A DNA stretch of 63,266 nucleotides, the filler included, from Conidiobolus incongruus B7586 (lineage: Eukaryota), in NCBI GenBank assembly GCA_000697335.1. It is 4 parts of 4 records of this genome, joined end to end, with 100 filler letters (N's around TTAATTAATTAA, not from the genome) between each part and the next. Parts side by side here need not be neighbours in the genome. Positions count along the whole stretch, not along the records: positions 1 to 27,489 come from JNEM01006067.1; 3 more parts are not named here. One strand, 5' to 3'. Shown here one piece after another: positions 2,106-57,632 of this stretch (the first letter of the stretch is position 1; each line of letters begins with the position of its first letter). A program made the translations under genes and the position numbers. A model generated the notes under the pieces. That model had not been told where the DNA came from, made no database searches, and saw only the letters and a list, made by a program, of their open reading frames with translations.

Positions 2106-2426
2106 AGGAAAAAATAAAACTTGTGAGGTGATTTTAATGAATATTATATATTTTTTAGTTTGAGAAGAGGAAAACTTAGAGTTAATTATCAAAAAAATTC
2201 AGTGAATTTTTTTAGGTCACATTTGAGTACATTTTTAACATTTTTCAGAAAAATCAGAAAAATCAGGAATCAGGACAGATTTGAGTAGGCCCATTATATG
2301 TTTATTAATTGAGTAGGTAAATTATATGATTATTGAATCATTATATGATAAAATGTGGATGATAATGATTTCATAAAATTAATATAGAAACCCTTTAGGA
2401 TATTAACGTCTTGCTTTTTTGCCTTT

Positions 2427-5195
2427 TCATTTGTATGGATTCGGCTTGGAAATTGATTTACTTTCTCCACGGTTTTTGCTACCACTTTTATTATTACCCG
2501 CAATTTGATCATTTCGGCGGTTGCTATCATTACCATTATTGCTACTATCGCCATTACTGATCTCAGATCCATCAGTACCGCCATTGACGTTATCTTCACT
2601 GTTGCTATCTGATCCATCATTACTATGATTGTTATTATCGCTTTTGATATTGTGAGAGCCATTATTGCCGCTGGTGCCATTATCTCCTCCATTAACGCTA
2701 GTATCATTATTATCATTACTCTGATTATCAGTTTCATCATCGTCATCATTGTCATTTCTACCATGACCATCATTGCGAGAACCATGATTGCCTTTGGCAT
2801 TCTTATTATTGGATTCCAATTCAATTTCGGTCTTAATGACTTTCTTACCATGAGTTTTTACATCGATATCAACAACATCGTCTCCTCTTAAAACTTTAGT
2901 ATCCAAATCGACAGCAGCTTTATCTCCATTTTTATTGTTCCCGGTCTCACCATGACCATTGGGTCCATCACTGTCAATGGCATCTTCGACAGTGTCAACC
3001 ACTTCCTCAATAACATCTTTATCTTTACCTTTACCTTTACCTTGAGATTTCTTCGATCTAAGATTTGGACCATGTCCTCCATCTTCTAGAAGATCCAGGT
3101 TGACATTGATATCTTGACTGTCTTTTCCACTTTGATGATGACCTGACCTATCTTTAGCTTGGTCATTTTGATCCTTCAATAAGTCCGAATCGGCAACTTC
3201 ATTGACAGTTTTCTCAACTTTTTTAACAGCATGTTGAACTTCTTTCTCAACTTCTTTCACGACTTCTCCCTGGTTGATACCACTAACCTTATGTTTGGTA
3301 TTTGAGGTCTTATCTTTATTGGAACCACTCAATTCGATACCAACCAATTTTTCATCTTTGTTATCCTTTTTGTTTCCATGATTGCTGTCTTTATCCAGCA
3401 CAGTGAAATCAACATCAATGTCAACTACATCTTTGCTTCCTTTAGATTGATGATTTCCAGCGTGTTGAGGAAGTACGTTAATTTCTACATCAACCGCATC
3501 GTCATCACTCCTACCAGAGCCATGTCCGTTATTTCGAGTTCTGTCAAGGACATTAACATCTAAGCCAACTGCATCATTGCCTCCTTTAGGAGGATGACCT
3601 CCAGAATGTTGAGAAAGCACATCAACACCAACATCGACTACTTCACTGCCTTTCTTTCCGGATTGATTTCTATTAGCGTGAGTCTTGTCGAGGACATTCA
3701 CACCAAGGTCAACTACTTCGCTGCCATCCTTGGGTTTGTGACTTCCACTGCGTTGAGAGAGCAAATTGACATCAGCGCCAACTACGTCATTTCCTTTCTT
3801 TCTAGATTGATTTCCATCAGTATGAGTCTTATCAAGGACATTCACACCAAGATCTACCACATCATCTCCGTCTTTCGATTTCTTGCTTCCATTGTGTTGA
3901 GAGAGTAAATTGACATCAGCGCCAACTACGTCATTTCCTTTCTTTCCAGATTGATTTCCATCATTATGAGTCTTATCAAGGACATTCACACCAAGATCAA
4001 CTACTTCATTGCCGTTCTTCGATTTCTGACTTCCACTGCGTTGAGAGAGTAAATTGACATCAGCACCAACTACGTCATTTCCTTTCTTTCTAGCTTGATT
4101 TCCATCAGTATGAGTCTTATCAAGGACATTCACACCAAGGTCAACTACTTCATCTCCATCCTTCGATTCCTTGCTTCCATTGTGTTGAGAGAGTAAATTG
4201 ACATCAGCACCAACTACGTCATTTCCTTTCTTTCCAGATTGATTTCCATCATTATGAGTCTTATCAAGGACATTCACACCAAGATCAACTACTTCATTGC
4301 CGTTCTTCGATTTCTGACTTCCACTGCGTTGAGAGAGTAAATTGACATCAGCACCAACTACGTCATTTCCTTTCTTTCTAGCTTGATTTCCATCAGTATG
4401 AGTCTTATCAAGGACATTCACACCAAGGTCAACTACTTCATCTCCATCCTTCGATTCCTTGCTTCCATTGTGTTGAGAGAGTAAATTGACATCAGCACCA
4501 ACTACGTCATTTCCTTTCTTTCCAGATTGATTTCCATCATTATGAGTCTTATCAAGGACATTCACACCAAGATCAACTACTTCACTGCCATCCTTGGATT
4601 TCTGACTTCCACTGCGTTGAGAGAGTAAATTGACATCAGCACCAACTACATCATTTCCTTTCTTTCCAGATTGATTTCCATCAGTATGAGTCTTGTCGAG
4701 GACATTCACACCAAGGTCAACTACTTCATCTCCATCCTTCGATTTCTTACTTCCATTGTGTTGAGAGAGTAAATTGACATCAGCACCAACTACGTCATTT
4801 CCTTTCTTTCTAGATTGATTTCCATCATTATGAGCCTTATCAAGGACATTCACACCAAGGCCTACCACATCATCTCCATCCTTCGATTTTCCTGACCCAG
4901 TGTGTTGGGAGAGTATATTAACATCGGTATCAACCACGTCCTTACCTGATTTTGGAGCCGATGCTTCATGACGAGTGTTAAGAATATTAACATCACCATC
5001 GACCACGTTGCTTCCATCTTCTTTCGAAGCAGCGCCCTTCGTTTGATGAGTCTTACTTAGAACCTTCACATCGGCATCTACTACATCGTTATCCTTGGCG
5101 ACCGCTCTCCGAACGATACCACCTATCTCGGAATGAGTAATAGGTTTAGCCATCAGTGACATGATCAAAATGCTAAAAATAGTTGCTGAGCGCAT
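2427..5195 (-). CDS. 922-aa secreted tandem-repeat protein; largest member of the clustered family
   Basis: Long intronless ORF with a hydrophobic signal peptide, IVRR pro-site, ~25 VVDxxVNVL-type motifs and an N/D/G/S-rich tail. No Cys. TATA-like TATATAAAG ~90 bp upstream. Confidence 0.92.
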   Translation of the reverse strand: MRSATIFSILIMSLMAKPITHSEIGGIVRRAVAKDNDVVDADVKVLSKTHQTKGAASKEDGSNVVDGDVNILNTRHEASAPKSGKDVVDTDVNILSQHTGSGKSKDGDDVVGLGVNVLDKAHNDGNQSRKKGNDVVGADVNLLSQHNGSKKSKDGDEVVDLGVNVLDKTHTDGNQSGKKGNDVVGADVNLLSQRSGSQKSKDGSEVVDLGVNVLDKTHNDGNQSGKKGNDVVGADVNLLSQHNGSKESKDGDEVVDLGVNVLDKTHTDGNQARKKGNDVVGADVNLLSQRSGSQKSKNGNEVVDLGVNVLDKTHNDGNQSGKKGNDVVGADVNLLSQHNGSKESKDGDEVVDLGVNVLDKTHTDGNQARKKGNDVVGADVNLLSQRSGSQKSKNGNEVVDLGVNVLDKTHNDGNQSGKKGNDVVGADVNLLSQHNGSKKSKDGDDVVDLGVNVLDKTHTDGNQSRKKGNDVVGADVNLLSQRSGSHKPKDGSEVVDLGVNVLDKTHANRNQSGKKGSEVVDVGVDVLSQHSGGHPPKGGNDAVGLDVNVLDRTRNNGHGSGRSDDDAVDVEINVLPQHAGNHQSKGSKDVVDIDVDFTVLDKDSNHGNKKDNKDEKLVGIELSGSNKDKTSNTKHKVSGINQGEVVKEVEKEVQHAVKKVEKTVNEVADSDLLKDQNDQAKDRSGHHQSGKDSQDINVNLDLLEDGGHGPNLRSKKSQGKGKGKDKDVIEEVVDTVEDAIDSDGPNGHGETGNNKNGDKAAVDLDTKVLRGDDVVDIDVKTHGKKVIKTEIELESNNKNAKGNHGSRNDGHGRNDNDDDDETDNQSNDNNDTSVNGGDNGTSGNNGSHNIKSDNNNHSNDGSDSNSEDNVNGGTDGSEISNGDSSNNGNDSNRRNDQIAGNNKSGSKNRGESKSISKPNPYK
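3650..4950 (-). repeat. Coding tandem repeat: 144-bp (48-aa) unit, 8 near-exact copies, with a 288-bp higher-order period
   Basis: AAATTGACATCAGC recurs at 3763, 3907, 4051, 4195, 4339, 4483, 4627 and 4771. Units alternate between SQHNGS and SQRSGS variants. Confidence 0.95.
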
Positions 5196-8032
5196 AATAC
5201 AATGAAAATAATTAATTGATTGAAATGAATTAATGTATTAATGTATAAATGTATGATACCGAATATTTGTCTCTTATCACTACTTTATATACATACTACC
5301 TCAGCATATTATATCATATCTTATCATTTTAATTCTACGGAAATTATTATAATTTCATCAAATTTATTAATATTAAAATTTATTAATTTTCCCAATTCAA
5401 TTCCAAATAAAATTGGTTAAAAATTTGCAAATCTTTTCATATATAATTTCCTAACGGATTCGGTATTAACGGAAATATTGGTAAATGGAATTATGGAAAG
5501 TTTTTTTTATTCTTAACAGCAATATTGAGATATTTGATAGTTGTCATGGTGTGATTAGTATTCATTTTTGAAATTAATTATTATTAATGTAGCGCTTAGA
5601 GATGACTAATGTGGTTCATTTTAAGATTATACTTATTAAAATATTTTTTATTTGCTTGAAATTTAAGCGTTTTAAAAATAAACCATCATTATTGTTAGCA
5701 AGACCAGTTTAATATTTGAGCTTCCTCAAAATACAACAATACATATAATTTATAATCTTTAATGCTTTATATTAAATAATTCAAAAATCAGTCATAATTC
5801 CAACTGGTTAGTTTATATTGATTCATTTTGTTTTATATAATATATTAAAGGGCTGTTATATCCAAATTAGTTAAATATATTTTCGTCTACTAAGCTATGG
5901 ATAAGTAGGATTAAAAAACTATCAGACATTTATCAATCCAATATTGAATAGATTAAATTTAATATTCAGACTCTTAAATTATTAGTATTGAATGATTACA
6001 GAGATATATTTCAAATGTAAGACATTTAATCTGATATTATATTCATTGATACACAATAAATTGAATAAAATATCTTCTTTTGATATTATCAAATTAATTT
6101 GTAGCCATAATGATAAAGGCGAACAATTAGAATATTCGTTGACAAAATAATATGAAAAATTTAATTCGTATTATTATCAATTTAATAATCATGCAATATA
6201 TTGATAATTGAAAATTGATGAAATTTTTGGGAAAATGATATGAGAAGTGAATGGAAGTGTGTATCAAGATATAGCATACTATGGTATGAATGAAAAATAT
6301 TCATAACATCTTGATAGAAAGTATGAATTCATTTTAGTTGTAAAAATTGATGATTGTAGTCCACATATATTTGCTTAATATCTCCATTATCATCCAAGTT
6401 ATTACATCTAGTAGATATTACTTCATTCTTCACTTTTAATTATTCTCAATCCATAGAAAGTTCGCTAGCCTCATCCAAAAATGCTCCAAAGTTTCCAATA
6501 CTTTTCAAAGATCCTTGGTCGTCATACAACGGGCCATCAACAGGCTTCAGTACGATTTCCAAAAGACTTTCAGTGGCTCCCGTCTCACAATTGATATCCA
6601 AAAGAGTATTGTTCAGAGTTTCTAAGAAGATTACTGCGGTGTGATCTATACTGTATCTATAGTGACTCATCTATGTGGTGATTGATGTGGGTCCTTAGGA
6701 CCGTCAGAATGCTTGATTAGATGTTTGTGTGGTTTCTTTTTTTTTTCATTTTTTTATATCTTATACATCGCTAAGGTTTATCACTTTTCTTAGATTGATT
6801 TTGGGCTTATTTGCAAGTGTTAGCAATCAATTTAGCAGTGGTAGAGCATATATTTCATTAGTAGCCATGACTAAATATTTCAATTATGAAAAACTATAAA
6901 AGGTTAACAGATATAAAGTTTTAATAGAATCAATATACAATATTATTTTGAGAATGAATTTTGGTATTGGTTAAATTTGAAATAGTTTTGACATGTGGTA
7001 AATTGATTTATATATTAGGGCTGAAATAGGTTGTTGATGTTGGTTTATTGATGATTGTCAAATTTATGTTTTTGAGCTTATTCTTGTGTTTTTAAATAAT
7101 ATGAACTATAAAAGACAAATACCAATCTTAAGCTGTAATGCAAATTAGGCTGGTTTATATTAAAATTTTATTTATCTCTATCAACATTGATATTATATTG
7201 AAAGTTTAGTTTAAGTGCAGTATATAATACAAAGTTTTATATATTAAATGATGTAGATATTTATTCCATACAATTGTTGATTAATATAAACCATCTTATT
7301 TTATATCTTCAAAATTAAAAATTTATATAAATTGGATCTATTTCACACCTAGAAACATTTTTATAATTCTTTTGACATTTTAATTAATATTAATCATTAA
7401 TATAATGACTAATGATAGAGAAAATAACAAAAATATATTACTCTGATTAGCAATAGCTGTTATAATTTCATGATGATTGATAAAATTAATAAATATGAAA
7501 ATCATAAATAAAATAATAGTAATGTTGTATAATTGTTTTATTACATTGAATCAACAATTATAATAATATTTTTTACAGAATTATGATTAAAACAAAAAAC
7601 TGCTATATATGCAATAAGTCAGATAATTATTTATATCATGATTTCAGTAGTAGGTGAATATTATGATATTCAAAACAAAATTTCAAATCCCAGTATAGAT
7701 AAGTTAATAAAAATATTTTCTAACTTATATTATTTGATGGTTGAGCTTTATCAACCTATATTGCTTTATTTCAATACATCGATTAGAATTTCAAATGGCC
7801 ATAAACAGTGCTATCTTTATATATGAAAACATAACACTAAAACAATCCCCAACAATATTTCATTATTTAAAATTCAAACAAAAACTAAATATTCTAAATA
7901 AACCACACTTTAAATCCCATCATATCTCAAAAAATTCAATCATCGATGATAATCAAATTGATGGTATTAAGAATATAAATTATCATTAATCATTTTGATG
8001 GCAATCAAGATGTTAAAAATTTAACATTATAA

Positions 8033-9178: not shown

Positions 9179-9820
9179 ATGCGTACTGCCACTCTACTCG
9201 CAATTTGGATGACTTCGTTGGTTGCTACACCAGCTATCCCTTCCAGGCACCCAAAAGTGCGCAGAGCTGAGAATAAGGCCAACGATGTGGTCAAAGCCGA
9301 CGTTGATGCTTTAAGCCACAAGAAACATGAGGATGATGATTTTGATGTGGACGCCATTTTGGATGAACTTTTGGCAGATATTAAAATTGATGATGTAAAT
9401 GGAAAAGACGGTGCTGTAGACAATTTAGTAGAAACTGTTGAAGGGGCTACTAAACTCGATCTAATCAAGAGTAGCAAAGTCAAGCGTCCATCCAAAAAGA
9501 ATAAAAAAAAAGATGCATTGGATGTTGATGTCACTGCTCTCGATGATCCTGCTGTTGCTGAGCTTGAAGTTGACAATAATCGTAAAAAGCTTGCTGAGCT
9601 TGATGTGACTTTTGAAGAAAAAGCGGAGGAAGTGGAACAATCAGAACAATCCGAAGAGCCAGAAGAGCCAGAAGTGTCAGAAGTGTCAGAAGAGCCAGAA
9701 GAACCCGAGGAAGTAACAGAAGAAACACCTAAGCCACCTCATCGCTATAGTAAGAAGAGACCTTACGGTAAGCGCAGGTCACATAAAGCAAAAAATCGCA
9801 GAGGCCTCAGGTATTTTTAA
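9179..9820 (+). CDS. 213-aa secreted family member with acidic E/P linker and basic K/R tail
   Basis: Signal peptide MRTATLLAIWMTSLVATP. VRR-AENKANDVVKADVDALS aligns with VRR-AVAKDNDVVDADVKVLS of the 922-aa protein. TATATAAA at 9081 and AATAAA at ~9881. Confidence 0.9.
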   Translation: MRTATLLAIWMTSLVATPAIPSRHPKVRRAENKANDVVKADVDALSHKKHEDDDFDVDAILDELLADIKIDDVNGKDGAVDNLVETVEGATKLDLIKSSKVKRPSKKNKKKDALDVDVTALDDPAVAELEVDNNRKKLAELDVTFEEKAEEVEQSEQSEEPEEPEVSEVSEEPEEPEEVTEETPKPPHRYSKKRPYGKRRSHKAKNRRGLRYF

Positions 9821-11062: not shown

Positions 11063-11848
11063 ATGCGTAATGTAATCTTCATTTCATTGTTAGTTGCATT
11101 TACTGGAGCTATTCAAGCAGCACATCATCATACCGGATTAGTTGGCTGTGAAGCATTGACTAAGGGAGACCTGGCAAATGTTAGTGTAAAGGTTGACAGG
11201 GACAGCAATCTGATCAAAGATGAAGATAGAAATAGCGGCTTGGATGTAGATAACCTTTTGAAGCTGAGTAACTTGAATGATGGTCTCATTGATCTCAATG
11301 ATTCGGAAAATAAAGATGATAGTATTGTCGAGTACTTAGCTTTGGATTTAAATGATTTTGATGATGTGATGGCCTTGTTAAATCTGAGTGAGAAGGATTA
11401 CCTTAACATTTTCCATTCGAGATCCGAAGCTATTCAGTATAGTAGTAACGAAAGTCAGTAAAAGAGTAGTGCGGAATGATTGAACATGAAAGCTGATGCT
11501 CTTGAAGGTATGATGTCGATGATATCAAGCTCGATAATGATTTTAGAGAGATTGCCGAAGTCAAAATTTCGCTTGGTAATGTTAATACTTAACAGGATTC
11601 AGGAGATGATAATGATGAGGGAGATAAAAAAGAAATCAAAACCTAAATCACTTTGATTACGTTGTAAGCCTCCAAAGAAAGGGCACTATTATAAACCCAA
11701 TTCTCATCACCAGTATAGCGAATATGGAAGGAGGAGTCCTAATGGTAGATATTTTTTACAACCTTCTTTTAGACCAGGACCAATGTATGAACCTGACTAC
11801 GGACGCCCGATTGGGTATTCTATGCCGTATCCACCAAGTTATCGTTAA
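11063..11848 (+). pseudogene. Disrupted secreted family member (132-aa ORF, then stops and frameshifts)
   Basis: Signal peptide present. Past the stop at 11461 the sequence still encodes LNMKADALEG / YDVDDIKLDNDFREIAEVKISLG (family module), an acidic then basic stretch, and a P/Y/G tail ending PYPPSYR* at 11848. The truncated 132-aa product could still be made. Confidence 0.7.
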
Positions 11849-13327
11849 TAATCATATCTTATATTCACATTTTAATTATCAAATAATTCATAACAATATA
11901 TATTGAAAGTTAGATGTATTATTTCTAATCTACAGATTTTTAACTTTTCTAATATTTGATACTTCCTTGATTGCTATAATAATTGATAACCCTAACTTTT
12001 TGATTAATTTTTTGTTGAGGTATTATAAATAACGGTATTAAATATTTCAAAAAGAATTCTACCAACAAATTCATTAATTTATATTGATATATTTCAGGAA
12101 ATATCTTAAAATTTTAAATATGATATTTAAATTTGTTAGGTTTTTATATTTGTCGCTTAATTTATGATTTATGAAGTTAATATACATCAATACTAAATCT
12201 CTAACTAATATAAACACATATTTCTTATTGATAATTGTTTTGTATTTTTGAAACATAGAAATAAATTGTTTTCTGGCAAAAAAATCAATAATGTATTATG
12301 TAATTCGTGAATTGAGTTCAGATAGATATTACAATCCTTGTTTTCAAAATCATTTTTATCCCAATAAATAATTTAATTTCTGAATACATTGAATAATATC
12401 TTGCTAGTATTAAAAAATTATAGTATACATAATTTTGTCATAACTTCGTCCAATTAAGCTATATTTTAAATAATATTTTATATTAATTACGATTATACAA
12501 ATTAATGAGATATACATTATTTCAGATTTATTAAGATAGATCTTTAGAAAAAACTAAATAATTTACTATATTTAAAACTTAACATCCCATATATTTTTAT
12601 TAATTTTATTTTAGTGCTTGGTTTATTATATTGCGGTTCTACCGATTGCTAGTAGAAGGTTAATAATAGATAAAGAAGCGGCTTGTTTATGGTCTGTTTG
12701 GTAGTTTAGGTTAGAGTGTTTTATTGGGTTTGTTAAGGGTTTTATGGACTTCGCAAAAGACCAAAGGTGATGGTGCTAATGTATCTTTTATAAAATAATT
12801 GTCGGCTGTAGGTAATGTAAAGTAGTATATTGGGTTGCTAGAAGAATGAGATCTTGGAGCGGTGTGATGAGTCTTTTGGTGGTAAGACTCCATAAGGTAA
12901 TAGATCGCGAGATGAAGTTGGTGGAGTGAGTGACCATTTATATAGCCACAATATATATTGGAATAAAATCAATGTATGTTTAAATGAAAATTATTTGAAA
13001 ATATGATTTAATGGGGTTACTTCATGTTCGAAATATACTTAATAACAAAATATTAAGAAAATATATTCAGGCTTCATTTTGAGAAGTCAATAAAATGAAT
13101 TCAATTACTGAATATCTGATATAAAACTAAATAGATTTTTTAATATATTCTTAACTGCAACTGTGATTAGTGCGAATTAGAGTTACCAATTCAGTTTAAT
13201 TCGTTTTATAGTAAGTTTCAAATCTGCAGTAGAGTTACAAATTAGATTTCAACATAATCGAAGTCTTTTAAAGCTAAATTAAGCTAATATCAAATTATTC
13301 AATGTTAATTATTTTTGATACTTAGTT

Positions 13328-13750
13328 ATCCGTGGAATTACTTTATCTCCTCTTCTAGTTGCCATTTTTTGCAAGCTCTTCCAATGAGTATCAGAGGTCC
13401 TTAATGTGGAGAGATGGTGACAATAAAGTACATACATTGGAGTTACTCCATTTTTTGGATGTTGATCCCAATAATTATGAAATTGATGACATTGAAGAAA
13501 AGGTTGAAAAATCTCATGAATCCAAGGAACATCATAAGCATCATAATGATCTATTGGAAGGAGCTTTCAATGTTTTGTTATTACACATAGTGAAAACCAC
13601 CAAGGTAAAGGTGATAAAGGAATTGAATTAAATTCGCAAATTGAAAATGATAGCGATTTCGTGAATGTCTAGTTAAATGAAATAATAAAAAGGTTCTCAA
13701 ACTTAAAATTGATGATGATGAATCGGGAAATAAGGAGCTTAGTACAATTA
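13328..13750 (+). pseudogene. Disrupted secreted family member
   Basis: IRGITLSPLLVAIF (ATC in place of ATG) ... SLMWR, then after a frameshift GDKGIELNSQIENDSDFVNV*LNE/NNKKVLKLKIDDD, which matches KDKGIELRTDVEDEDDILDIGLDDNEEEVVDV of downstream paralogues. Confidence 0.7.
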
Positions 13751-14978
13751 AAAATAATTATTGCATCAATTGGGTACTCAAAATAGATGGTTCAAGTCTA
13801 AACTTAGACCTGAACCGCATTTCTAATCTGAATCTGAAAGATCAGTTTCCAAAATACCATGCACTTTAATGACTTTTCAATTTTCAATCCTATTATTAAG
13901 ATTACTTATTTTTTCTCGGATTATAAGGCCATTTTAATAATTTTACAATTTTATTGACCATTCAGCATTTAAATGGTAATAAATTATTTTCTATATTTCA
14001 TACAATTTTTGTGATATAAATTAATCCAATACATTTCCTTTTAAATATCTAATATTTATATTAACAATAATTGAATACAAAAGTTAATGCTCTAATTTAA
14101 TATTGATAATAATCAAAATTAATGGAGACTTTATAAATTTCGATTATATGACTGAATCTGCAAAAGGTATTCTTTATTATTAATAAATCGTTGTATCCAA
14201 TTCAATAAAATTAAATTATATTTGAGAAAAAATTCAATTACATTCAGATAACACCTGATATTTTGTACATGATAATAAAAATGATATAAAAGTTCTTTAA
14301 TAATAGCTATTATTATTTTAGTTTGAATAAATATACACCCTATATTAGAATAAAAATGAAATAAAATCTAAATCATAATTTCATCCAATTTAGACATTGA
14401 AAATACTCTTTATTGAATCATTGATATACCATTTTCAATTGATTGAAGTTTCATCTATAACCCCAGGTTATTTGAGTATTTCAATATTTAATCAATAAAA
14501 ATGATCAAACACCCAAAAAATTAATTATAGATAAACTATTATAATTTTACTATTTTTCTATTTTGATTATTAGGAAGAATCAATTCAGTTCCAATTTATT
14601 AACCAATTTCTATATTGAGTCAATTATCCACATGATAATAAATATTAAAGATTAGAAGATATCGAGATAAAAAATCAGTATATTTCAGTATTATTTTAAA
14701 ATCGGTAATAAAATTTTAAATGATTAATTATATTATATAATATTATATGCAATTTCCCCAAAGATAATTGTTTAATATTATCACTAATATTGAACCATTC
14801 AATATTATTAAATGTTCATAAATTTGTCATATTTGAATATCATAAACATAGATCCTCCAATCAATTAATTGATATCGTATAAACAATTCAATTGGATTCT
14901 TGAGATATATAAGCAGATTTTAAGTACCGTAAAAAATTAAAATATTGCAATTCAATCTATATATATATATATTTAATA

Positions 14979-15749
14979 ATGCACACTACTACATTATTCA
15001 GTTTACTCCTAACTAGTTTAATTGCTACTCCCATTACTCCTTCGGAACATTCATTGATACGTCGATTAGACCTATTGAATAGGTTAATCGAAGTAGATGC
15101 TTTGGATGCCCTTGATATTGGAGGCATTACTGGTCGTGAATCCCGTCACCCTCGCGAAAAAGAAGATGGAATCAATTTGGATGCTAGGATCGAAGAGGAT
15201 GAAGATTTGGCCGAGCTTGAATTAGATGATGAAGCTAATGATATTGCTGGCATTCAGATCTTGGAGGAAGAGATACCTGAAGAGCCCGCTGAAGAGCCAG
15301 AAGAGCCTGAGGAATCTGAACAACTCGAAGAGTCTGAAGAGCCTATGTATGAAGATGATGATGAATATAATGATGAATATGATGATGAATATGATGGCAA
15401 ATACGGTCGCTATCCTGGAGGATATAACGACCGCTATGATGGAGGCAGATATCGTAGCTATGACGTTGGATACAGTGGTGATTACGGCAATGGTTACTAT
15501 GATAACTATAATGGTGGTTATAATGGAGATTATGATAATAGAATGTATCCAGGATATTTCAAAGATTATAATGGTGGTTATCGTAACGGCTATAGCGGTG
15601 GATATGGTAATGGTTATAACGGTGGATATGGTAAGAGCTATGATGGAGGTTATGATAATGGCTATAGCCGAGGCTATAGTGACAGCAATGGTTACAATGG
15701 AGGATATGATCGATACAATGGTGATTATGGTCCATATGGTGAATATTAG
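14979..15749 (+). CDS. 256-aa secreted family member with Tyr/Gly/Asn/Asp-rich tail
   Basis: Signal MHTTTLFSLLLTSLIATP, SLIRR pro-site, family module, EEPEE linker and (G/N)GY repeats. TATA-like element at ~14906. Confidence 0.9.
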   Translation: MHTTTLFSLLLTSLIATPITPSEHSLIRRLDLLNRLIEVDALDALDIGGITGRESRHPREKEDGINLDARIEEDEDLAELELDDEANDIAGIQILEEEIPEEPAEEPEEPEESEQLEESEEPMYEDDDEYNDEYDDEYDGKYGRYPGGYNDRYDGGRYRSYDVGYSGDYGNGYYDNYNGGYNGDYDNRMYPGYFKDYNGGYRNGYSGGYGNGYNGGYGKSYDGGYDNGYSRGYSDSNGYNGGYDRYNGDYGPYGEY

Positions 15750-16669
15750 TACTATCCAACTCCATCTAATCGGTTTATCAACAAAGACTTTGATTATACT
15801 TCAATCATCCAACTTAGATATTTTATATCTTTAAATATTCATTGAATTTCTCTTTTAATTACTTTTATAATAAATAGCATAATTATTCACTTCTCAGAAT
15901 TAAATCATGTAAAACCAATTGCCTTCTTTTTTTGAAAAGAAAAAACTATCATTAAAATCATTTTTAGGCCTTATATATATATATATATATATTAATAATT
16001 TACTTGGATAATTTGTTTATTAATTTTATTAAAATCTTTAAATTAATAAATATTCCAATTGACATTTATTTTTGAATCAATATGTTATTAATGATAACTA
16101 TATTCATATAATTTTTTGATATTAATGAGTATAAAAAATTCACTATCCTTACAATATTAGATTTTGTGGTATAATTTATCTGATTTATATAAGCTTTATA
16201 TTAATCAAATTTATATCCCTTTATGAATATCAATTAAATATAGAGTTGTTCTTTATTCGATCTGATTTTTGGATTAGGTTTTTAGTAATTGAGTTAATAA
16301 ACTGAGTTGAATTCAATGTTAATTATTGTGTTGGAATCATAAATAATATTAAAAAAAAAATAACATTAAATTCTAAAAATATTTATAATTCGATATCTTA
16401 CAGCACAATAAACAATATTGATATAAACACTACAGAATTGAAAAAGAGTAATTTGGTGACTTAAAAATTGACAATTTTTATATATGTGGAGTTGTTAGCA
16501 AAACAATAGATTTGATCTAAAAAAATAAATCTCCAAATATATAATAATTATATAATCAATGATTGATGATTTGATAACAAAATAAGTCATTTGAATTTTT
16601 ATTAATATTGATCGACAAAGTTAGGATTACAAATTATCAACATTGAAATGGTTGCATTTTTATATATAA

Positions 16670-19600
16670 ATCTGATGTGAGGACTAAAGTCATCATATTA
16701 TTTACTCATTGCTTTAATTCATCTTATATTTATTGTTTAACTATATGCATTCAACTATTTTGTTCGTTCTATTAGTTTCTAGTTTAATTGCTACCCCCCT
16801 TCCTGCTCCAAGTCATGCTTTGACTCGTCGTATCGATGCTTTGAAAGGATTGGACTTGGGAGATTTAGGTCTCATAAATGATATCTTGAAACTTGGTGAA
16901 AAACATCCTAAAAAGCAGCATCCTTCAAAAGATAAAGGAATTGAGTTGCGAACTGATGTTGAAGATGAAGATGATATATTAGATATTGGCCTGGATGATA
17001 ACGAAGAGGAAGTTGTTGATGTAGCTGTTTTGGAAGAAGAGCCTGAGCAGCTGGATGAACCCGAAGAATCTGAAGAATCTAAAGAGTCTGAAGATTCCGA
17101 AGAATATGAAAGTGAAGATTATGAAGATTATGAAGATTATGAAGGCGAGTACGATGAAGATGTATACGATGGCCAGAGGTATGGAAAGAAATCCAATGGC
17201 TATAAAGGAGACTATGGCAATGATGGTTATGATGGGAGATATGACTATCATTATAATGATGGACATGGTGGCTATAATCGCGAATACGATAGCTATGATG
17301 GAGAGTATGATGAGTATTACGGCGACTATGACGGCTATGATGGTGATTATCGCCAATACAATTTATACTGAATTTATGAAATCCAATCTGATTTAGAACA
17401 TTCACTAATGTATGTATATAACAAATAACATCAACGTATCATAGTTCAATGCATAGCTCATTCAATATATATTATTTTTCATTTTAGAATCACTAATTGA
17501 ATAAAAATCATTAAATTTGAAATTCATTTAATTATCCTTTTATTGTTGGTCAATTTCAAGTTTCATAATTTATAAAATGATATACATCAAATGAAATCAA
17601 AATGGTATAATGAATTTATTTACAGCTACATCAACATCACTTGATTTGATTTGATACAACTCTTATCCTATGTTCGATGTTTAGTTAGCATCGATAAAAT
17701 ATAAATGAAATCTTATTACAAATAATGGGCGTCAAATTATACCTTGAAATTATTGAAAACATAAATGTATTTCTAAAAATTTATTATTACCGATATAATC
17801 ATATTATTACTATTTTGGATATTTTTGAATCTACTTATATTAAGTATTTATACATTTTTATTCTCATTTTTGAATCAATTACTTTAAAATTTTTAATTAG
17901 AGCTAATTAAATGAATATATGAACTTTGGCTTATTATATTTTGAAATTTTCAAGTGTATGTTATATTTATTAGTTTTATTAGATAAATTTGAGATTTTTC
18001 AGTCAGTTGAGCTCCTGTTATAACAAAATTAGGACAGGGCCACAGAAATTTTTGAATTTAATGTTTTTGCATTTATATGAGTATTAGAAATTATAGTCAT
18101 TTTATTAATGAGGTAAAATTAGCAAATTTTTTAATATATAAACTATACTGTAATTTATAATCAATACCATGATAAAAAGTAAAATAATCAAGTTTTTAAG
18201 AAATACTACTCATATTTATTTGTAGAATTGTTGTAGGACAGTTTCTTTTGAAATAATGAAAGTTGAACCACATCTATTTGTATATCAAAGATTTTTATTC
18301 CAATTCTTTTAAAGGTAATATTTTATCAAATTTAATTGAATTTATTTTTGTATTTTATTAACTTATTTTTGATGGATTGAAAGCATATATTTCAACTATC
18401 CTTATATTTTAACTTTTTTATAATGATAGGTTTTCAAATGATAGTTATTATAACATTGAATTTCTCAATGCAATTAGGTTTGATTCAATATGAAACTTCT
18501 AATAAAGATATTACTTTTTATAAAGTAATTTTTTACTGTACTTAATCTTATCAATTAAATTTTATAATGAATAATTAATAATTGTAATACCTTTATATTC
18601 ATTATAAAAAGTCACTGTAAACTGGTATAACAATCTCTATTATGATTATTATATATTGGGTACATAATAATCCAATATCAGAATAAATAATCAAAAAATA
18701 CCAATTATATTTCACTAATTCATCCAATTCAAAATAGAGTAGATCCTTTATAGAATGAGAAATATCAAAACATTTGTCATTATTATCTCACTAATACTGC
18801 TCCTTAATAAGTAGTAAATAGTTTCAAATAAATGTTGTATATGCTTGATATAAGTAAAATTTTATTCTCTCTTGATCCTAGATAATAAACTTAAATCAAC
18901 ATATTGATGAATATATAAGAATATAGTGTATGAATATTGAAAATAGTTTATTTATCAAATAGAATATAATATTTATTGGATTTGATTAAACTTACTAAAC
19001 ATAAATTTTATATTACATTGACCAACTTCATAAACTAACTAATGTGACAATTAAAATGAAAAATTATAAATTGATGATCTCTATTGAGATTATCATTTAA
19101 TAACAAGGATAGCATTTATTGTTTTGATAGTATATTTATAGTAAATATCGATATAGAAATTAAGTGATTATGAAAGATAATTAATGTGCTATTGTTCTTA
19201 TTATAATCTTTCATGATTGGTGAAAATTTATACACAATCAACTATATACAGCTTGAACATTGAATTATGTAAATAAATGATCGTGATTTAAATTGGGATC
19301 AACATTGATAAAGGAAATTCAATTTATAAATTGTAAACATCTCAATAAATAAAGGTTATATATAAATGAGATCTGATGTAAGGACTAAAGTCATCATATT
19401 ATTTATTCATTGCTTTAATTCATCTTATATTTATTGTTTAAATATATGCATTCAACTACTTTGTTCGTTCTATTAGTTTCTAGTTTAATTGCTACCCCCC
19501 TTCCTGCTCCAAGTCATGCTTTGACTCGTCGTATCGATGCTTTGAAAGGATTGGACTTGGGAGATTTAGGTCTCATAAATGATATCTTGAAACTTGGTGA

Positions 19601-19862
19601 AAAACATCCTAAAAAGCAGCATCCTTCAAAAGATAAAGGAATTGAGTTGCGAACTGATGTTGAAGATGAAGATGATATATTAGATATTGGCCTGGATGAT
19701 AACGAAGAGGAAGTTGTTGATGTAGCTGTTTTGGAAGAAGAGCCTGAGCAGCTGGATGAACCCGAAGAATCTGAAGAATCTAAAGAGTCTGAAGATTCCG
19801 AAGAATATGAAAGTGAAGATTATGAAGATTATGAAGATTATGAAGGCGAGTACGATGAAGAT
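16670..19862 (+). repeat. ~490-bp near-identical direct repeat (16670-17162 and 19371-19862)
   Basis: Direct comparison at offset 2701 shows only a handful of mismatches. Confidence 0.93.
16745..17371 (+). CDS. 208-aa secreted family member with Tyr/Asp/Gly-rich tail
   Basis: First ATG at 16745 (the ORF track starts at an upstream TTG). Signal peptide, ALTRR, module and YD/YG tail present. TATATATAAA at 16661. Confidence 0.9.
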   Translation: MHSTILFVLLVSSLIATPLPAPSHALTRRIDALKGLDLGDLGLINDILKLGEKHPKKQHPSKDKGIELRTDVEDEDDILDIGLDDNEEEVVDVAVLEEEPEQLDEPEESEESKESEDSEEYESEDYEDYEDYEGEYDEDVYDGQRYGKKSNGYKGDYGNDGYDGRYDYHYNDGHGGYNREYDSYDGEYDEYYGDYDGYDGDYRQYNLY

Positions 19863-20024
19863 GAATACGATGGTCATAGATATGGAAAGAAACCCGATGG
19901 TTATAAACGAGGCTATGACAGTGATGAATATAACCGAGGATATGATTACCGATACAACAACAATTATGACGGATATGATTATGAATATGACGGAGATAGT
20001 GGTGATTATGAAGACTACAATTGA
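19446..20024 (+). CDS. 192-aa secreted family member, close paralogue of 16745-17371
   Basis: First ATG at 19446. The first ~139 codons are almost identical to the previous gene; the tail has diverged. Confidence 0.9.
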   Translation: MHSTTLFVLLVSSLIATPLPAPSHALTRRIDALKGLDLGDLGLINDILKLGEKHPKKQHPSKDKGIELRTDVEDEDDILDIGLDDNEEEVVDVAVLEEEPEQLDEPEESEESKESEDSEEYESEDYEDYEDYEGEYDEDEYDGHRYGKKPDGYKRGYDSDEYNRGYDYRYNNNYDGYDYEYDGDSGDYEDYN

Positions 20025-25713: not shown

Positions 25714-26391
25714 TTATTTCTTTTTACCTTCCTTTCTTCTAACAACTTCATCACCAATGAAAATACCTTTACCATTGTAAGGTTCGGGTTTCTTCCACTT
25801 GCGTACTTTGGTAGCAAAAGCCATCAATTTTTGCTTATCAATACTTGTCATAATGATCTTAGTAGGGTTAGGAACTTTAACTTGAATACCCTCAGGAATA
25901 GGTTCATTGATAGGATGACTATAACCACATTTGAGACCAATAGTATCTCCTTCGAGCATAGCACGATAACCAACACCACTCATTCTAAGACTGATGGTAA
26001 AACCTTCGGTAACGCCTTCGATACAGTTTGAAATTAAAGCACGGGTAGTACCCCACATAGCTTTTTGGTGCTTAATAGAAGGATCTTCAACAGTCACCTT
26101 AAGTTCATGATTACCAGCCTCCGTTACTTCCTTGACAAAATCGAGTTTGACAAAAGGGACGATGGGAACTCTTTGTTCACCCAAGGGTCCTTTAACAGAA
26201 AGCATTTTAGCTTCACCATATTTCAGGTTATTGGGAGAAATTTCGTCTAATAAAGTGATAGAAACGTCAGAAGGGTAATATAAACTAGCTTTTCCAATAT
26301 GACTGAGTTGAGGAGAAAGGGTAGAAAAACTTCTCAAACAAGTTTGATTAAAAGATTTAGTTAATGTAGTTTTTAATAATGAGGAGATCAT
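25714..26391 (-). CDS. MRPL6: Mitochondrial ribosomal protein uL6m
   Basis: Presequence followed by SHIGK, VKGPLG, MWGTTRALI, GVGYRA and PEPYNGKGI. Confidence 0.96.
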   Translation of the reverse strand: MISSLLKTTLTKSFNQTCLRSFSTLSPQLSHIGKASLYYPSDVSITLLDEISPNNLKYGEAKMLSVKGPLGEQRVPIVPFVKLDFVKEVTEAGNHELKVTVEDPSIKHQKAMWGTTRALISNCIEGVTEGFTISLRMSGVGYRAMLEGDTIGLKCGYSHPINEPIPEGIQVKVPNPTKIIMTSIDKQKLMAFATKVRKWKKPEPYNGKGIFIGDEVVRRKEGKKK

Positions 26392-27489: not shown

Positions 27490-27589
27490 NNNNNNNNNNN
27501 NNNNNNNNNNNNNNNNNNNNNNNNNNNNNNNNNTTAATTAATTAANNNNNNNNNNNNNNNNNNNNNNNNNNNNNNNNNNNNNNNNNNNN
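27490..27589. other. Assembly gap spacer N44-TTAATTAATTAA-N44
   Basis: The same 100-bp spacer with six-frame stops occurs three times; artificial. Confidence 0.97.
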
Positions 27590-31213: not shown

Positions 31214-34200
31214 ATGTATAACTCTTTAATTGCTTCATTAGCTCTTTTATTGATTAACCCTTGCAGTGGTTTGAATCTCCAAAAAACTGGCAGCATCAAT
31301 GCTGCAAGATTCGGCAAAGCTGGAGATCATGAATTGGCTCCCGCCCGTTTCTTGACCACTGACAATGCTCCCGCTGCTGATGGAGGCGAACCTAATTCCA
31401 AGAAAGCTAAAGCTGATCCCCTTCCTATTAGACCCCTCACCAAAGATTGGGACCTTGGTAAGTCTTTGAACCGCACTTTAGAAGTTACCTTGGACGAAGG
31501 TACATGGATCAATTTGGATGTCAGCCCTGATGGTAAAGAAATCGTCTTCGATTTACTTGGTGATCTTTACACTCTTCCCATCGAAGGTGGTGAAGCTAAA
31601 TTGCTCAAAGGTGGTCCTGCTTTTGACGTCCAGCCTACTTACTCACCCGATGGCAAGAAAATTCTTTTCACTTCGGATGCTAGTGGTATTGATAACTTGT
31701 GGGTTGCTGACAAATCAGGAAAGTCCTTCCAACTTACCGATGAAGGTTATAGATCCGTCAGTAATGCTCATTGGGCACCTAATGGTAAAGAGGTTGTTGG
31801 TGTCAAATGGTATACATCCGGCCGTTCCATTCCTGCCGGTACCATCCAAAGATATAAATTAAATGGCGAACAAGTCAGCAAACCGGAGTTATTAGTTGAT
31901 CTTAAATCAGCCCAAGTTGGTGTTGAAGAACCCATCTACAATCCAGTTGGTCCTGGTGATTCCATCTACTACTCCACCAATGATGTTGATGGTGCCAGAT
32001 GGAACTATGATAAAGACCCTCATGCTGGTATTTTCAATGTCTACTCTTTCAATACTACCTCTCAAGAAAAGGGTACCAAAGTTGCTGGAGGCGTTGGATC
32101 TGCTGTCCGCCCCACTCCTTCTAGAGATGGTAAGAAGCTCGCATTTGTTCGCAGAGTTGAATTCACTTGGTCTTTGATTGTCAAGGATCTCGAGACTGGA
32201 GATGAAACAAATATTTGGGATGGTCTTTCTCGTGACAATCAAGAATCATCTGCCTCCAATGGTGTTTATCCAAGATTTGCCTGGTTACCTGATGATTCTG
32301 CTATCATCATTTGGGCTCAGGGTAAGATTCATCGTGTCCCCTTGGATAAATCTCCAGTTAAGGTCATCCCCTTCAAAGCTAATGTTAAATTGAATATTGC
32401 TCCTACCGTTAAGCACCAACAAAGCTTAATTGAAGCTTCTGATGAAAAGACTTTCGATAACAAGATCATCCAGTTCTTCGATGTCAGTAAAGATGGTACC
32501 AAGGTTGTTTACATCGTTACTGGCCGCACTTATATCAAGGATCTCAAGACTGGTAAATCCACTTTACTTAAACTCGATCATTCCGAAGATAATCGTCATG
32601 CTCCTTCTTTCCATCCTTCCAATGATAACATTGTCATTCAATCCAGATGGAACGATAGCAAGTTATCTTTCATTGAAATTGTTGATGTCTCTAAAGGAAA
32701 GATCATTTCTACTCTCAAACTTCCCAGAGGTCATTACAATTATCCTTCTTTATCTCACGATGGAAAGAAATTCGCTTTCACCAAAGCCTCTGGTGATGAA
32801 ATTGCTGGAACTGTCCTTGCACAAGCCAATTTAGGTATTTATGTTGGTGAATTAAATGACAAGTTTGAAGTTATTGAAGGTTCTGTTGAACTTGTTATTC
32901 CTGACGAAATTGCTGGTGCTAAATTCACCGAAGATGACAAGCAACTTCGTATTGTTGGTTACACTGATCCTTATATCGTTGATCTAGCCAGTGGTGAACC
33001 TACTCCTCTTGGTTCCATTAAGGACAATGCTGGTGATGTTACTCTTAGTAAGAATGCTAAATGGGTCACCTATCCTCAATACAGACAGGTCTATGTTGCT
33101 CCTGCTACTGCTAATACCACCTATTGGAGTAAACCTGGAAGCTCTCCCGAAGGTTTAATCCGTTTATCCAAGGATGGTGGTCAAACCACTGTTATTGGTG
33201 GTCCTGATGGTCAAACTGCTTACTACTTACGTGCCAACACTCTTTTTGAAGCTCATATCCCTACTGTTGTTGAAAAATGTGGTGCTATTGCCAAGTCTGA
33301 TACCGCTAAGTTTGGTGCTGAATGTGTCCAACCTTTACTCAAGTCTCATGATTTGTCTGTTAAGGTCCCAATTTCTCGTCCTCCTTCTGATAAGGTCCTT
33401 GTTCTTGACAACGCTAAGATTGTCACCATGAAGACTGGTAACCCTGCCTCCGATATCATTGAACGTGGTAGACTTGTTGTCAAGGGTAACAAGATTTTGG
33501 CTGTTGGTGACTGTGATAGTACTCCCATTCCCAAGGGTGCTGAAGTTAGAGATCTTGCTGGTGCCACTATCCTTCCTGGCTATTTGGATGAACATGCTCA
33601 CTGGTCCGCTTACGATTATCCTGTTCGCTCCCACTGGCAACATCAACTAGCTTTATCCTATGGTGTTACCACCATGCACAATCCCTCTTACGATACCGTC
33701 CAAGGTTTCGCTGAACAAGAATTGGTCCGTTCTGGCCGTCTTTTGGCTCCTAGAATCTTTACCACTGGTACTATTCTTTATGGTGCTGAAGGTGCTGAGC
33801 GTGTTGAAGTCACCAACATTGATGATGCCAGATCTGTTTTAGGACTCCTCAAATCATATGGTGCCATCTCCGTCAAATCTTATAACCAACCTTCTCGCTA
33901 CTCTCGCCAAATGATCCTTGAAGCCGCCCGTGAACTTGGTATGCTTGTTGTCCCTGAAGGCGGTATGCACTTCGCTTGGAACACCAACCAAATCATTGAC
34001 GGTCACACCACTATTGAACACTCTCTCTCTCCTGGTATCCTTTACGAAGATCTTCAAGTTCTCTTTGAAAAATCTGGAACTGCCTGGACTCCTACTCTCG
34101 TTGTCTCTTATGGTGGTGTTGAAGGTGAAAGATACTGGTACCAATCTACCAATGTTTGGGAAGATCCTAAGATGCGTGCTCGTCACCCTCTTAAGGATTT

Positions 34201-34657
34201 GGAAGCTTCCTCCTTCCGTAGAACTTTGACCGATGAACGTGAATATGTCTTCTTGGAAACTGGTAAGACTCTTACCAACCTCACTCGCCGCAATGTCTTA
34301 ATCAATCCTGGTGCCCACGGTCAAAGACAAGGTGTCGGTTACCTTTGGGAACTCTGGATGCTCTCTAAGAGTGGATTAAATAACTATGAAGTTCTCCGTG
34401 CTGCCACTCGCAATCCCGCTCTTACACTCGGTCTCAAGGATCTTGGTTCCCTTGAAGCTGGAAAATTGGCTGATTATATTATTTACCCTGCTGATGCTTC
34501 TCCTCTTAAGGACCTCAAGCACCTCTATAACATTACCCATGTTTCTGTCAATGGTTTCCTCCACGATGCCAACTCTTTAGATCAAATCTGGCCCGAGAAA
34601 AAGAAATCTTTGCCTTTGCCCCAACTGAATGATAGTGTTTTAGTTCACGATAATTAA
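31214..34657 (+). CDS. Secreted TolB/PD40 beta-propeller + metal-dependent amidohydrolase, copy A
   Basis: 1147-aa intronless ORF with signal peptide and repeated SPDG/PD40 motifs. ATILPGYLDEHAH (HxH), GVTT, TIEH and LGSLEAGKLAD are amidohydrolase motifs. Confidence 0.93.
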   Translation: MYNSLIASLALLLINPCSGLNLQKTGSINAARFGKAGDHELAPARFLTTDNAPAADGGEPNSKKAKADPLPIRPLTKDWDLGKSLNRTLEVTLDEGTWINLDVSPDGKEIVFDLLGDLYTLPIEGGEAKLLKGGPAFDVQPTYSPDGKKILFTSDASGIDNLWVADKSGKSFQLTDEGYRSVSNAHWAPNGKEVVGVKWYTSGRSIPAGTIQRYKLNGEQVSKPELLVDLKSAQVGVEEPIYNPVGPGDSIYYSTNDVDGARWNYDKDPHAGIFNVYSFNTTSQEKGTKVAGGVGSAVRPTPSRDGKKLAFVRRVEFTWSLIVKDLETGDETNIWDGLSRDNQESSASNGVYPRFAWLPDDSAIIIWAQGKIHRVPLDKSPVKVIPFKANVKLNIAPTVKHQQSLIEASDEKTFDNKIIQFFDVSKDGTKVVYIVTGRTYIKDLKTGKSTLLKLDHSEDNRHAPSFHPSNDNIVIQSRWNDSKLSFIEIVDVSKGKIISTLKLPRGHYNYPSLSHDGKKFAFTKASGDEIAGTVLAQANLGIYVGELNDKFEVIEGSVELVIPDEIAGAKFTEDDKQLRIVGYTDPYIVDLASGEPTPLGSIKDNAGDVTLSKNAKWVTYPQYRQVYVAPATANTTYWSKPGSSPEGLIRLSKDGGQTTVIGGPDGQTAYYLRANTLFEAHIPTVVEKCGAIAKSDTAKFGAECVQPLLKSHDLSVKVPISRPPSDKVLVLDNAKIVTMKTGNPASDIIERGRLVVKGNKILAVGDCDSTPIPKGAEVRDLAGATILPGYLDEHAHWSAYDYPVRSHWQHQLALSYGVTTMHNPSYDTVQGFAEQELVRSGRLLAPRIFTTGTILYGAEGAERVEVTNIDDARSVLGLLKSYGAISVKSYNQPSRYSRQMILEAARELGMLVVPEGGMHFAWNTNQIIDGHTTIEHSLSPGILYEDLQVLFEKSGTAWTPTLVVSYGGVEGERYWYQSTNVWEDPKMRARHPLKDLEASSFRRTLTDEREYVFLETGKTLTNLTRRNVLINPGAHGQRQGVGYLWELWMLSKSGLNNYEVLRAATRNPALTLGLKDLGSLEAGKLADYIIYPADASPLKDLKHLYNITHVSVNGFLHDANSLDQIWPEKKKSLPLPQLNDSVLVHDN

Positions 34658-42723: not shown

Positions 42724-42823
42724 NNNNNNNNNNNNNNNNNNNNNNNNNNNNNNNNNNNNNNNNNNNNTTAATTAATTAANNNNNNNNNNNNNNNNNNNNN
42801 NNNNNNNNNNNNNNNNNNNNNNN
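42724..42823. other. Assembly gap spacer
   Basis: N44-TTAATTAATTAA-N44. Confidence 0.97.
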
Positions 42824-57532: not shown

Positions 57533-57632
57533 NNNNNNNNNNNNNNNNNNNNNNNNNNNNNNNNNNNNNNNNNNNNTTAATTAATTAANNNNNNNNNNNN
57601 NNNNNNNNNNNNNNNNNNNNNNNNNNNNNNNN
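57533..57632. other. Assembly gap spacer
   Basis: N44-TTAATTAATTAA-N44. Confidence 0.97.

Follow-up and report, generated by a model that had tools for sequence, protein, structure and literature searches.

A long cysteine-free repeat protein of Conidiobolus incongruus, tentatively read as a β-solenoid coat protein

The secreted curli protein CsgA consists of repeats of 22–25 residues, each of which forms a whole coil with tight arcs. Its structures (8enq; Pontibacter, 8c50) combine tandem repeats and alternating inward-facing hydrophobic residues in a parallel β-solenoid. Tandem repeats with alternating hydrophobic residues, and a solenoid predicted with modest confidence, recur in a likewise probably secreted protein encoded by Conidiobolus incongruus B7586 (assembly GCA_000697335.1). 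Its gene, a single-exon open reading frame (ORF) of 922 residues in an A+T-rich genome, lies at 2427–5195 on the minus strand of a 63,266-nucleotide stretch of joined sequence parts, here called the window. An initial annotation of this DNA had placed a repeat-bearing 922-residue protein at this locus; the reading frame and its repeats are real, with the strand now assigned as minus. We favour overall, with a probability of roughly 0.45, the reading that it is a secreted coat protein, trimmed of a pro-peptide, that stays mostly intact as a β-solenoid and likely polymerises.

CsgA and the 922-residue protein are 8% identical in structural alignment and have no sequence relation; no curlin match was found in Pfam at E ≤ 1 or by sequence in the PDB. 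Unlike CsgA, the Conidiobolus protein uses one strand per core, a predicted coil of 48 residues and long charged linkers, and it is eukaryotic, with N-glycosylation sequons and a Kex2-type pro-site. FapC of Pseudomonas has imperfect repeats with conserved Asn and flexible linkers, and its unlike repeats stack on one another, limiting charge repulsion (PMC12392863). Its plan of cores and flexible linkers matches that of the 922-residue protein, but FapC has three repeats of ~38 residues in a Greek key, as compared with up to 24 cores of 10 residues here, and the Foldseek match to it is not significant (E 0.39, template modelling score (TM) 0.11–0.15).

The HET-s-type motif, to which the repeats had also been likened, is a cytosolic prion-forming domain with two pseudo-repeats and a HeLo/NLR partner. 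That comparison is unsupported: the protein has a leader and no globular domain, no such Pfam match and no sequence or fold match was listed, and no NLR was found among the 10 larger ORFs of the window that were scanned. Lepidopteran chorion proteins have Gly/Tyr-rich arms and are clustered in tandem, features that resemble the neighbouring paralogues at 14979–20024. They comprise many paralogues with a common β-forming core and form an amyloid coat (PMC13252134); unlike the present family, they are animal proteins with another core motif, and with no sequence match between the two the analogy is one of architecture only. Hydrophobins are small and defined by eight conserved Cys (PMC3364958), whereas there is no Cys in the protein or in any of its four intact paralogues. 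By the features tested, the family is not a curlin, hydrophobin or HET-s-type domain; its predicted mode of action is that of curli or FapC, and its layout that of a fungal pre-pro repeat protein.

Rep1 of Ustilago maydis, with the class of Kex2-processed repeat proteins (KEPs), is similar in being a fungal pre-pro-protein with tandem repeats, dibasic sites and amphipathic, β-prone units, and the 922-residue protein likewise comes from a lineage in which such a protein could take over the role of hydrophobins. Processing of Rep1 into 11 peptides has been shown (PMC3133707). A Rep1-type repellent would have repeats flanked by canonical Kex2 sites with P1 Arg, whereas the internal sites here are KK or RKK with P1 Lys, and our homologue searches gave no sequence match to Rep1.

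The gene and its parts are as follows.

2427–5195, minus strand: the gene, a single-exon ORF of 922 residues
5285–5291, minus strand: TATATAA box, 96 nt upstream of the ATG
5148–5195, minus strand: likely signal peptide, residues 1–16, from hydropathy and the invariant S13-L14-x-A16-x-P18
5106–5147, minus strand: likely pro-peptide, residues 17–30, ending in IVRR, with RR in six of six members
4842–5087, minus strand: four strand modules, all diverged, with cores at residues 37, 63, 86 and 109
3645–4796, minus strand: array of eight 48-residue units, residues 134–517, with 10 linker sequons
3402–3644, minus strand: four strand modules, again diverged, with cores at residues 518, 541, 566 and 589
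2796–3401, minus strand: residues 599–800, looser strand motifs (at about 618, 696, 760, 773 and 787)
2796–3401, minus strand: within the same residues, two Glu/Val/Lys patches, helical-looking by eye
2430–2795, minus strand: Asn/Gly/Asp/Ser-rich tail, predicted disordered, 7 sequons

Repeat cores and predicted fold

The core pattern occurs 24 times between residues 37 and 598, at a spacing of 23 or 25 residues and once of 26, and at most twice in shuffles of the protein (n = 2000); because the pattern was written from these same cores, the shuffle test speaks to non-randomness and not to function. In the array, residues 134–517 or 42% of the protein, 16 cores alternate strictly between DVVGADVNLL (core A) and EVVDLGVNVL (core B), each unit of 48 residues being made up of core A, a 13-residue linker, core B and a 15-residue linker. 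Tandem Repeats Finder reports the repeat as 144 nt in 9.1 copies (3637–4947). A higher-order repeat of 288 nt is superimposed, the units at residues 230 and 326, and those at 278 and 374, being identical at the DNA level; the number of eight units is that of the assembly. The remaining 8 of the 24 cores lie outside the strict array and are diverged, and residues 599–922 hold a few looser strands followed by the Asn/Gly/Asp/Ser tail. The roughly 25 strands every 23–25 residues of the initial annotation are thereby retained as 24 cores, with the strict A/B alternation confined to the array. All sequons of the repeat region, out of 18 N-glycosylation sequons in the protein, fall within linkers.

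The cores are two-faced. On face 1 (positions 3, 5, 7 and 9) 94 of 96 residues are aliphatic, and on face 2 (positions 4, 6 and 8) all 72 are polar or Gly. Measured at 180 degrees, the hydrophobic moment of the cores reaches 3.16, as compared with 1.11 ± 0.17 (maximum 1.63) in 1000 within-core shuffles; these statistics are partly circular in that the cores were chosen by pattern. Asn occupies position 8 in 21 of the 24 cores. Among the eight array units, variants in the cores are synonymous in seven cases and residue-changing in one, against 10 and 16 in the linkers (Fisher p 0.039, counted without a tree and uncorrected for shared history).

On balance, we expect each 48-residue unit to form one coil, in which the Val/Leu/Ala faces of A and B would be packed together and Asn8 would form a ladder; the linkers, which carry charge and would be glycosylated, would lie outside. 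For a construct of 10 strands, the best AlphaFold model has a regular β structure with a 48-residue period at a predicted local distance difference test score (pLDDT) of 58 and a predicted TM score (pTM) of 0.54; core B together with the next 5–6 residues makes a long strand, and core A is kinked at Gly-Ala-Asp. A wide parallel β-solenoid with 48-residue coils is thus predicted with modest confidence. The leading Foldseek rows for this model, none of them significant, are parallel β-helices. Against 48,161 chains, VIA-align puts the CsgA fibril of E. coli at the top (Z 10.1, root-mean-square deviation (rmsd) 8.6, 110 residues aligned), followed by SufBD-type β-helices (Z 7.6–8.3, rmsd 2.8–5.4; the best at Z 8.3, rmsd 3.0, 149 aligned), with Pontibacter curli sixth (Z 6.9). 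The two-faced cores, Asn8, the contrast between core and linker variants and the CsgA match at the top of this ranking are counted in favour of the solenoid reading. The initial annotation had proposed an intact β-solenoid or cross-β scaffold and named structure prediction of a few units among the checks; the cores, the variant contrast and the CsgA-like model lend that proposal modest support, the prediction itself returning a solenoid at pLDDT 58 in one of five 10-strand models and pLDDT 42 for the shorter construct of 6 strands.

Several observations weigh against the solenoid reading. All five models of the 6-strand construct fell below pLDDT 50 (the best, at 42, and its Foldseek rows were not used), and the remaining four 10-strand models scored 48.5, 45.0, 33.3 and 26.5; the alignments behind them, drawn from the repeats of the protein itself, hold little independent signal. 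Foldseek gave no match at E ≤ 0.001 for the best model, and a VIA-align Z below about 13 may mean, for repeat proteins, a mere common arrangement. The cores contain no aromatic residues, positions 4 and 6 of the diverged cores are both Asp, whose charges would be mutually repulsive without cations, and by charge-hydropathy every segment of the protein lies on the disordered side. The best model stacks like on like (A on A, B on B), a register that places acid on acid at 14 of 30 face-2 positions, as compared with 1 of 32 when consecutive strands follow one another A-B-A-B in one sheet, and the register is therefore tentative. Outside the protein itself, a second copy of the gene, described below, may be dead and may have lost its array. 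The alternation of A and B in one sheet is a possible alternative to the best model's register and rests on one amplified unit pair. Co-folding of three 144-residue copies scored 0.01, which gives no verdict and is not used either way.

The same charge-hydropathy values and the 18 sequons, together with AlphaFold models below pLDDT 50 in four of five and five of five cases, could describe a glycoprotein of mucilage or adhesive type that has no stable fold: a disordered, heavily N-glycosylated polyampholyte, its short greasy strands serving as weak stickers within the sticky spore coat. Entomophthoralean conidia are coated with a mucinous fluid (PMC9026835). We regard this as unlikely, in that stickers would not need so much order as is seen in the strict 180-degree patterning, the column of Asn8 and the constant 23/25 spacing. 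Disorder is also a feature of curli monomers before assembly, and FapC monomers are likewise disordered at that stage. The monomer of a solenoid-forming protein such as we favour here would probably be disordered before assembly as well.

Pro-site and internal dibasic sites

The N-terminal leader is hydrophobic (KD11 2.54) and carries the conserved motif S-L-x-A-x-P, with S13, L14, A16, P18, R29 and R30 invariant in all six aligned family members. Past the leader the protein has no hydrophobic segment, the maximum 19-residue hydropathy after residue 30 being 0.23, and a membrane or glycosylphosphatidylinositol-type anchor is not evident from the sequence. Export is very probable. The pro-site IVRR (residues 27–30) has an aliphatic P4 in five of six members and Lys in one, and the described Kex2 motif has an invariant P1 Arg and prefers an aliphatic P4 (PMC8528282); the combination of a short N-terminal pro-region, KR/RR or L-x-x-R and an aliphatic P4 that characterises a Kex2-processed pro-domain protein (K2PP) is present in the sequence. 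Removal of the pro-peptide at the conserved RR, putatively by Kex2, is likely. In the course of events that we propose, export would be followed by a single Kex2 cut at RR, the linkers would be glycosylated, charged and facing outwards, and the repeats would fold as a parallel solenoid, which would stack by its ends and so coat the fungal surface with fibres or sheets resembling curli.

The internal dibasic sites differ from this pro-site. The protein contains no KR, and no Trp. KK precedes all nine A-type cores (as RKK in four of nine), two of the eight B-type cores and none of the six diverged cores (63, 86, 109, 541, 566 and 589), so that the KK or RKK reported once per 48-residue unit holds for the A cores and is patchy elsewhere. 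At the nine internal unit sites, P1 is Lys throughout and P4 is Ser (7) or Ala (2), and an N-Q-S sequon occupies P6–P4 in seven. RR is the only dibasic site in the paralogue at 14979 and in the Conidiobolus coronatus fragment introduced below. Kex2 uses KK "to a lesser extent" (PMC6339444), and the earlier argument that KK, as the weaker Kex2 site, favours an intact scaffold gains support from the P1 Lys, the sequons, and the diverged cores and paralogues without KK. Acidic residues past the cut site (PMC2515848) were tried as a discriminator and did not separate RR from KK sites. The array linkers are rich in Lys (42 of 224 residues), and the periodicity of KK can be explained by one KK in such a linker having been copied along with the array. 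We lean towards internal KK sites that mostly escape cutting and go back to a single linker multiplied in the course of array growth. That the conserved RR fits Kex2 and the internal P1-Lys sites do not is counted in favour of the intact solenoid.

The other model of the initial annotation was a Rep1-like precursor, in which Kex2 or another dibasic protease would cut at each KK and release about eight amphipathic peptides of 48 residues to form a water-repellent amyloid film. The sequence formally passes the in-silico definition of a KEP, an ER signal peptide, here likely from the leader, and at least three tandem repeats of 8–100 residues between KR, KK, RK or RR (PMC7329392). KK before the A cores is invariant among the eight units, cuts at all dibasic sites give six pieces of exactly 48 residues, and this length lies within the 34–53 residues of Rep1 peptides (PMC3133707). 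KEP screens accept KK and RK (PMC7329392, PMC6339444), 19 KEPs are listed for C. coronatus, and Zoopagomycota are given as the phylum richest in KEPs. The model is nonetheless improbable and weaker than the intact scaffold, since P1 is always Lys where Kex2 has P1 Arg, the lesser-used KK takes the place of KR, and the family's own Kex2 site, aliphatic-x-R-R, is unlike the internal ones; with Lys so frequent in the linkers, one ancestral KK is unremarkable, and its absence before every diverged core and from the paralogue at 14979 argues in the same direction. None of the 19 listed KEPs is the C. coronatus homologue, though the model of that homologue is a partial one of 136 residues.

Paralogues, relatives and a second copy

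At higher positions in the same window lie further members of the family, on the opposite strand.

9179–9820, plus strand: paralogue, 213 residues; leader, RR, several strand motifs, acidic linker and basic tail (blastp E 4e-9)
11063–11850, plus strand: probable decayed paralogue, a 132-residue ORF followed by frameshifts and stops (by eye, not profile-scored)
13310–13800, plus strand: decayed paralogue with stops and frameshifts (family profile match at 13586–13696, iE 0.0036)
14979–15749, plus strand: paralogue, 256 residues; leader, RR, strand motifs, acidic linker and Tyr/Gly tail
16745–17371, plus strand: paralogue, 208 residues, with a Tyr/Asp/Gly tail
19446–20024, plus strand: paralogue, 192 residues, recently duplicated from 16745, with which 593 nt of DNA are 95% identical

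The four intact paralogues have the leader and first strands in common with the 922-residue protein, and TATATAA stands at −73 to −98 in all five intact family genes (background 21 of 395 intervals of 50 nt). Given the common leader, strands and neighbourhood, the 922-residue gene is the long member of a tandem, cysteine-free and probably secreted family. Three of the paralogues (14979–20024) have Tyr/Gly/Asp-rich tails, the last 131 residues of the one at 14979 containing 34 Tyr and 34 Gly, and these resemble, by analogy, the tails of cross-linked wall or coat proteins; the basic tail of the paralogue at 9179, set against the other tails, suggests charge-complementary partners. It is possible, though short of an even chance, that the solenoid, being open at its ends, polymerises to give a layer of the wall or spore coat in which the short paralogues also take part; the Tyr/Gly tails of these paralogues could be cross-linked. 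The probable decayed copy at 11063–11850 retains stretches of Asp and aliphatic residues like those of the family, and a tail of Tyr, Pro and Gly. Judged from the sequences, the presence of decayed members among intact ones is birth-and-death turnover of the cluster. The cluster, the leader, the RR at 29–30, the 18 sequons, the 288-nt repeat and the second copy were all additional to the initial annotation.

In a phmmer search of 1.84 billion representatives there were three matches, of which one is a credible homologue: KXN70985.1 (CONCODRAFT_6358) of C. coronatus, a hypothetical protein recorded as a partial sequence of 136 residues and 44% identical to the N-terminal part. It has the leader, RR and first strands of the 922-residue protein but no array visible within its recorded 136 residues. 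The other two matches, one a tandem repeat of Leishmania and the other a 928-residue repeat protein without a name, were rejected as low-complexity matches with unrelated units. Three word-based searches, one near full length, one shorter and one longer with the family profile, scored 7990, 7995 and 7992 candidates, of which none reached E ≤ 0.001, 0.1 and 0.01, respectively, and an exact look-up of nine window proteins in the protein collection returned none. No catalogued Pfam family was matched, NCBIfam gave nothing near its cut-off, the PDB gave nothing credible by sequence, and the ESM Atlas yielded no usable feature match, with structure rows at TM < 0.5 for a query model of pLDDT 0.42. 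The TFIIB repeat, of helical cyclin fold (PF00382), reached a whole-protein E of 1.5e-7 as the sum of weak repeat matches, no stretch passing singly. Of 276 pattern matches in prokaryote genomes one passed, in what we take to be a corrinoid-protein-like gene, and was set aside as chance sharing of one short motif; in metagenomes 0 of 422 passed. Because such searches are weak for low-complexity repeats, wider relatives may exist. We found no description of the family in the literature covered, from which subscription papers are mostly absent.

The one DNA sample found to contain the window also has a divergent second copy of the gene, about 86% identical including its flanks (162 differing letters in 1192 nt, 13.6%), on contigs that align to 2250–3630 and 4950–5330 of the window. 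Three other runs under the same species label aligned nowhere here, which does not prove absence, and no RNA data set was listed as containing the DNA, which has no bearing on expression. A 4520-nt contig spans both sides of the array and bridges it by 175 nt as compared with 1321, which is 382 codons fewer, and additionally lacks one 25-residue module, in frame, from the region of cores 518–589; the evidence is that of contigs from one sample, in which a collapsed repeat is possible. By its sequence the second copy would have about seven cores in the region where the long copy has 24. Both length changes are in frame and of nearly whole modules, which is counted in favour of the solenoid reading. 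One contig covers the 5′ end of the second copy, its sole link to the rest being 55 nt in common; it retains RR and has a stop at codon 2. In the tail 17 of the 19 changes shown alter residues (from 24 of the 26 coding-side differences listed, out of 174 in total). Because the second copy may be a pseudogene, its missing array could be a loss and is not proof of a recent gain. The presence of two ~86%-identical copies may reflect a hybrid or duplicated genome.

Mean divergence among the array units is 9.0%, two pairs being identical; it lies below that between the copies, which fits recent expansion or homogenisation. That the long array is a recent, near-neutral product of slippage in one copy of a fast-turnover family, with a seven-strand form or the short paralogues as the working form and nothing special in 25 strands, draws on these figures, on the 175-nt bridge and on the two decayed paralogues, but it is doubtful, given that the contrast between cores and linkers suggests selection after expansion and that the intact frame belongs to the long copy of the window, and as a mechanism it is compatible with the favoured solenoid.

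A candidate for the rodlet layer, and the rest of the window

Spores of C. obscurus carry a rodlet layer under mucilage, according to a review (PMC3364958). In a survey of 45 genomes, strict hydrophobins were found in one of six Zoopagomycota, Entomophthora muscae, with Conidiobolus perhaps not among the six (10.1101/2022.08.19.504535); spores of Mucorales are described as lacking rodlet hydrophobins (PMC13514795, PMC4553469, PMC6394756), and early-diverging fungi with hydrophobins have been listed (PMC6784888). No paper naming the protein of the C. obscurus rodlet layer was found, again in literature that mostly excludes subscription papers. Given this layer and the single hydrophobin-bearing genome in six, the family is a testable rodlet candidate, and a concrete and easily made one, although the homologue searches made found no member in C. 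obscurus. The bolder proposal, that the cysteine-free family builds the Conidiobolus rodlet layer as an independently evolved eukaryotic curli, its tandem cluster supplying solenoids of adjustable length (~7 or ~24 strands) and short Tyr-tailed cross-link partners in place of the hydrophobins that the lineage largely lacks, is a long shot.

If the protein does form fibres, it would be a new functional amyloid scaffold, free of cysteine and aromatic residues and with natural length variants, of relevance to biomaterials and to how spores adhere in fungi that kill insects and occasionally infect mammals. If it does not, it would be a lineage-specific secreted repeat protein, a gene sort common in fungi.

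Between the family genes, the intergenic stretches 6380–6700 and 12620–12960 are short, G+C-richer patches without a clear open frame, the first containing a minus-strand ORF of 74 residues; they are possibly relics of genes or transposons. Three N-stretches (27490–27589, 42724–42823 and 57533–57632), each of two runs of 44 N with 12 bases between, lie outside the gene and the cluster. On the plus strand, 31214–34657 and 37944–41387 are a tandem pair of single-exon genes of 1147 residues, each with a likely signal peptide, and Pfam finds PD40/DPPIV_N propeller and amidohydrolase domains in the first. This architecture is familiar from bacteria, so a horizontal origin is worth checking. Elsewhere, 25714–26391 encodes ribosomal L6 with a leader of mitochondrial type by eye, 58338–59171 the C-terminal part of NSUN2/Trm4, and 60838–61791 a rhodanese-domain protein that resembles Cdc25.

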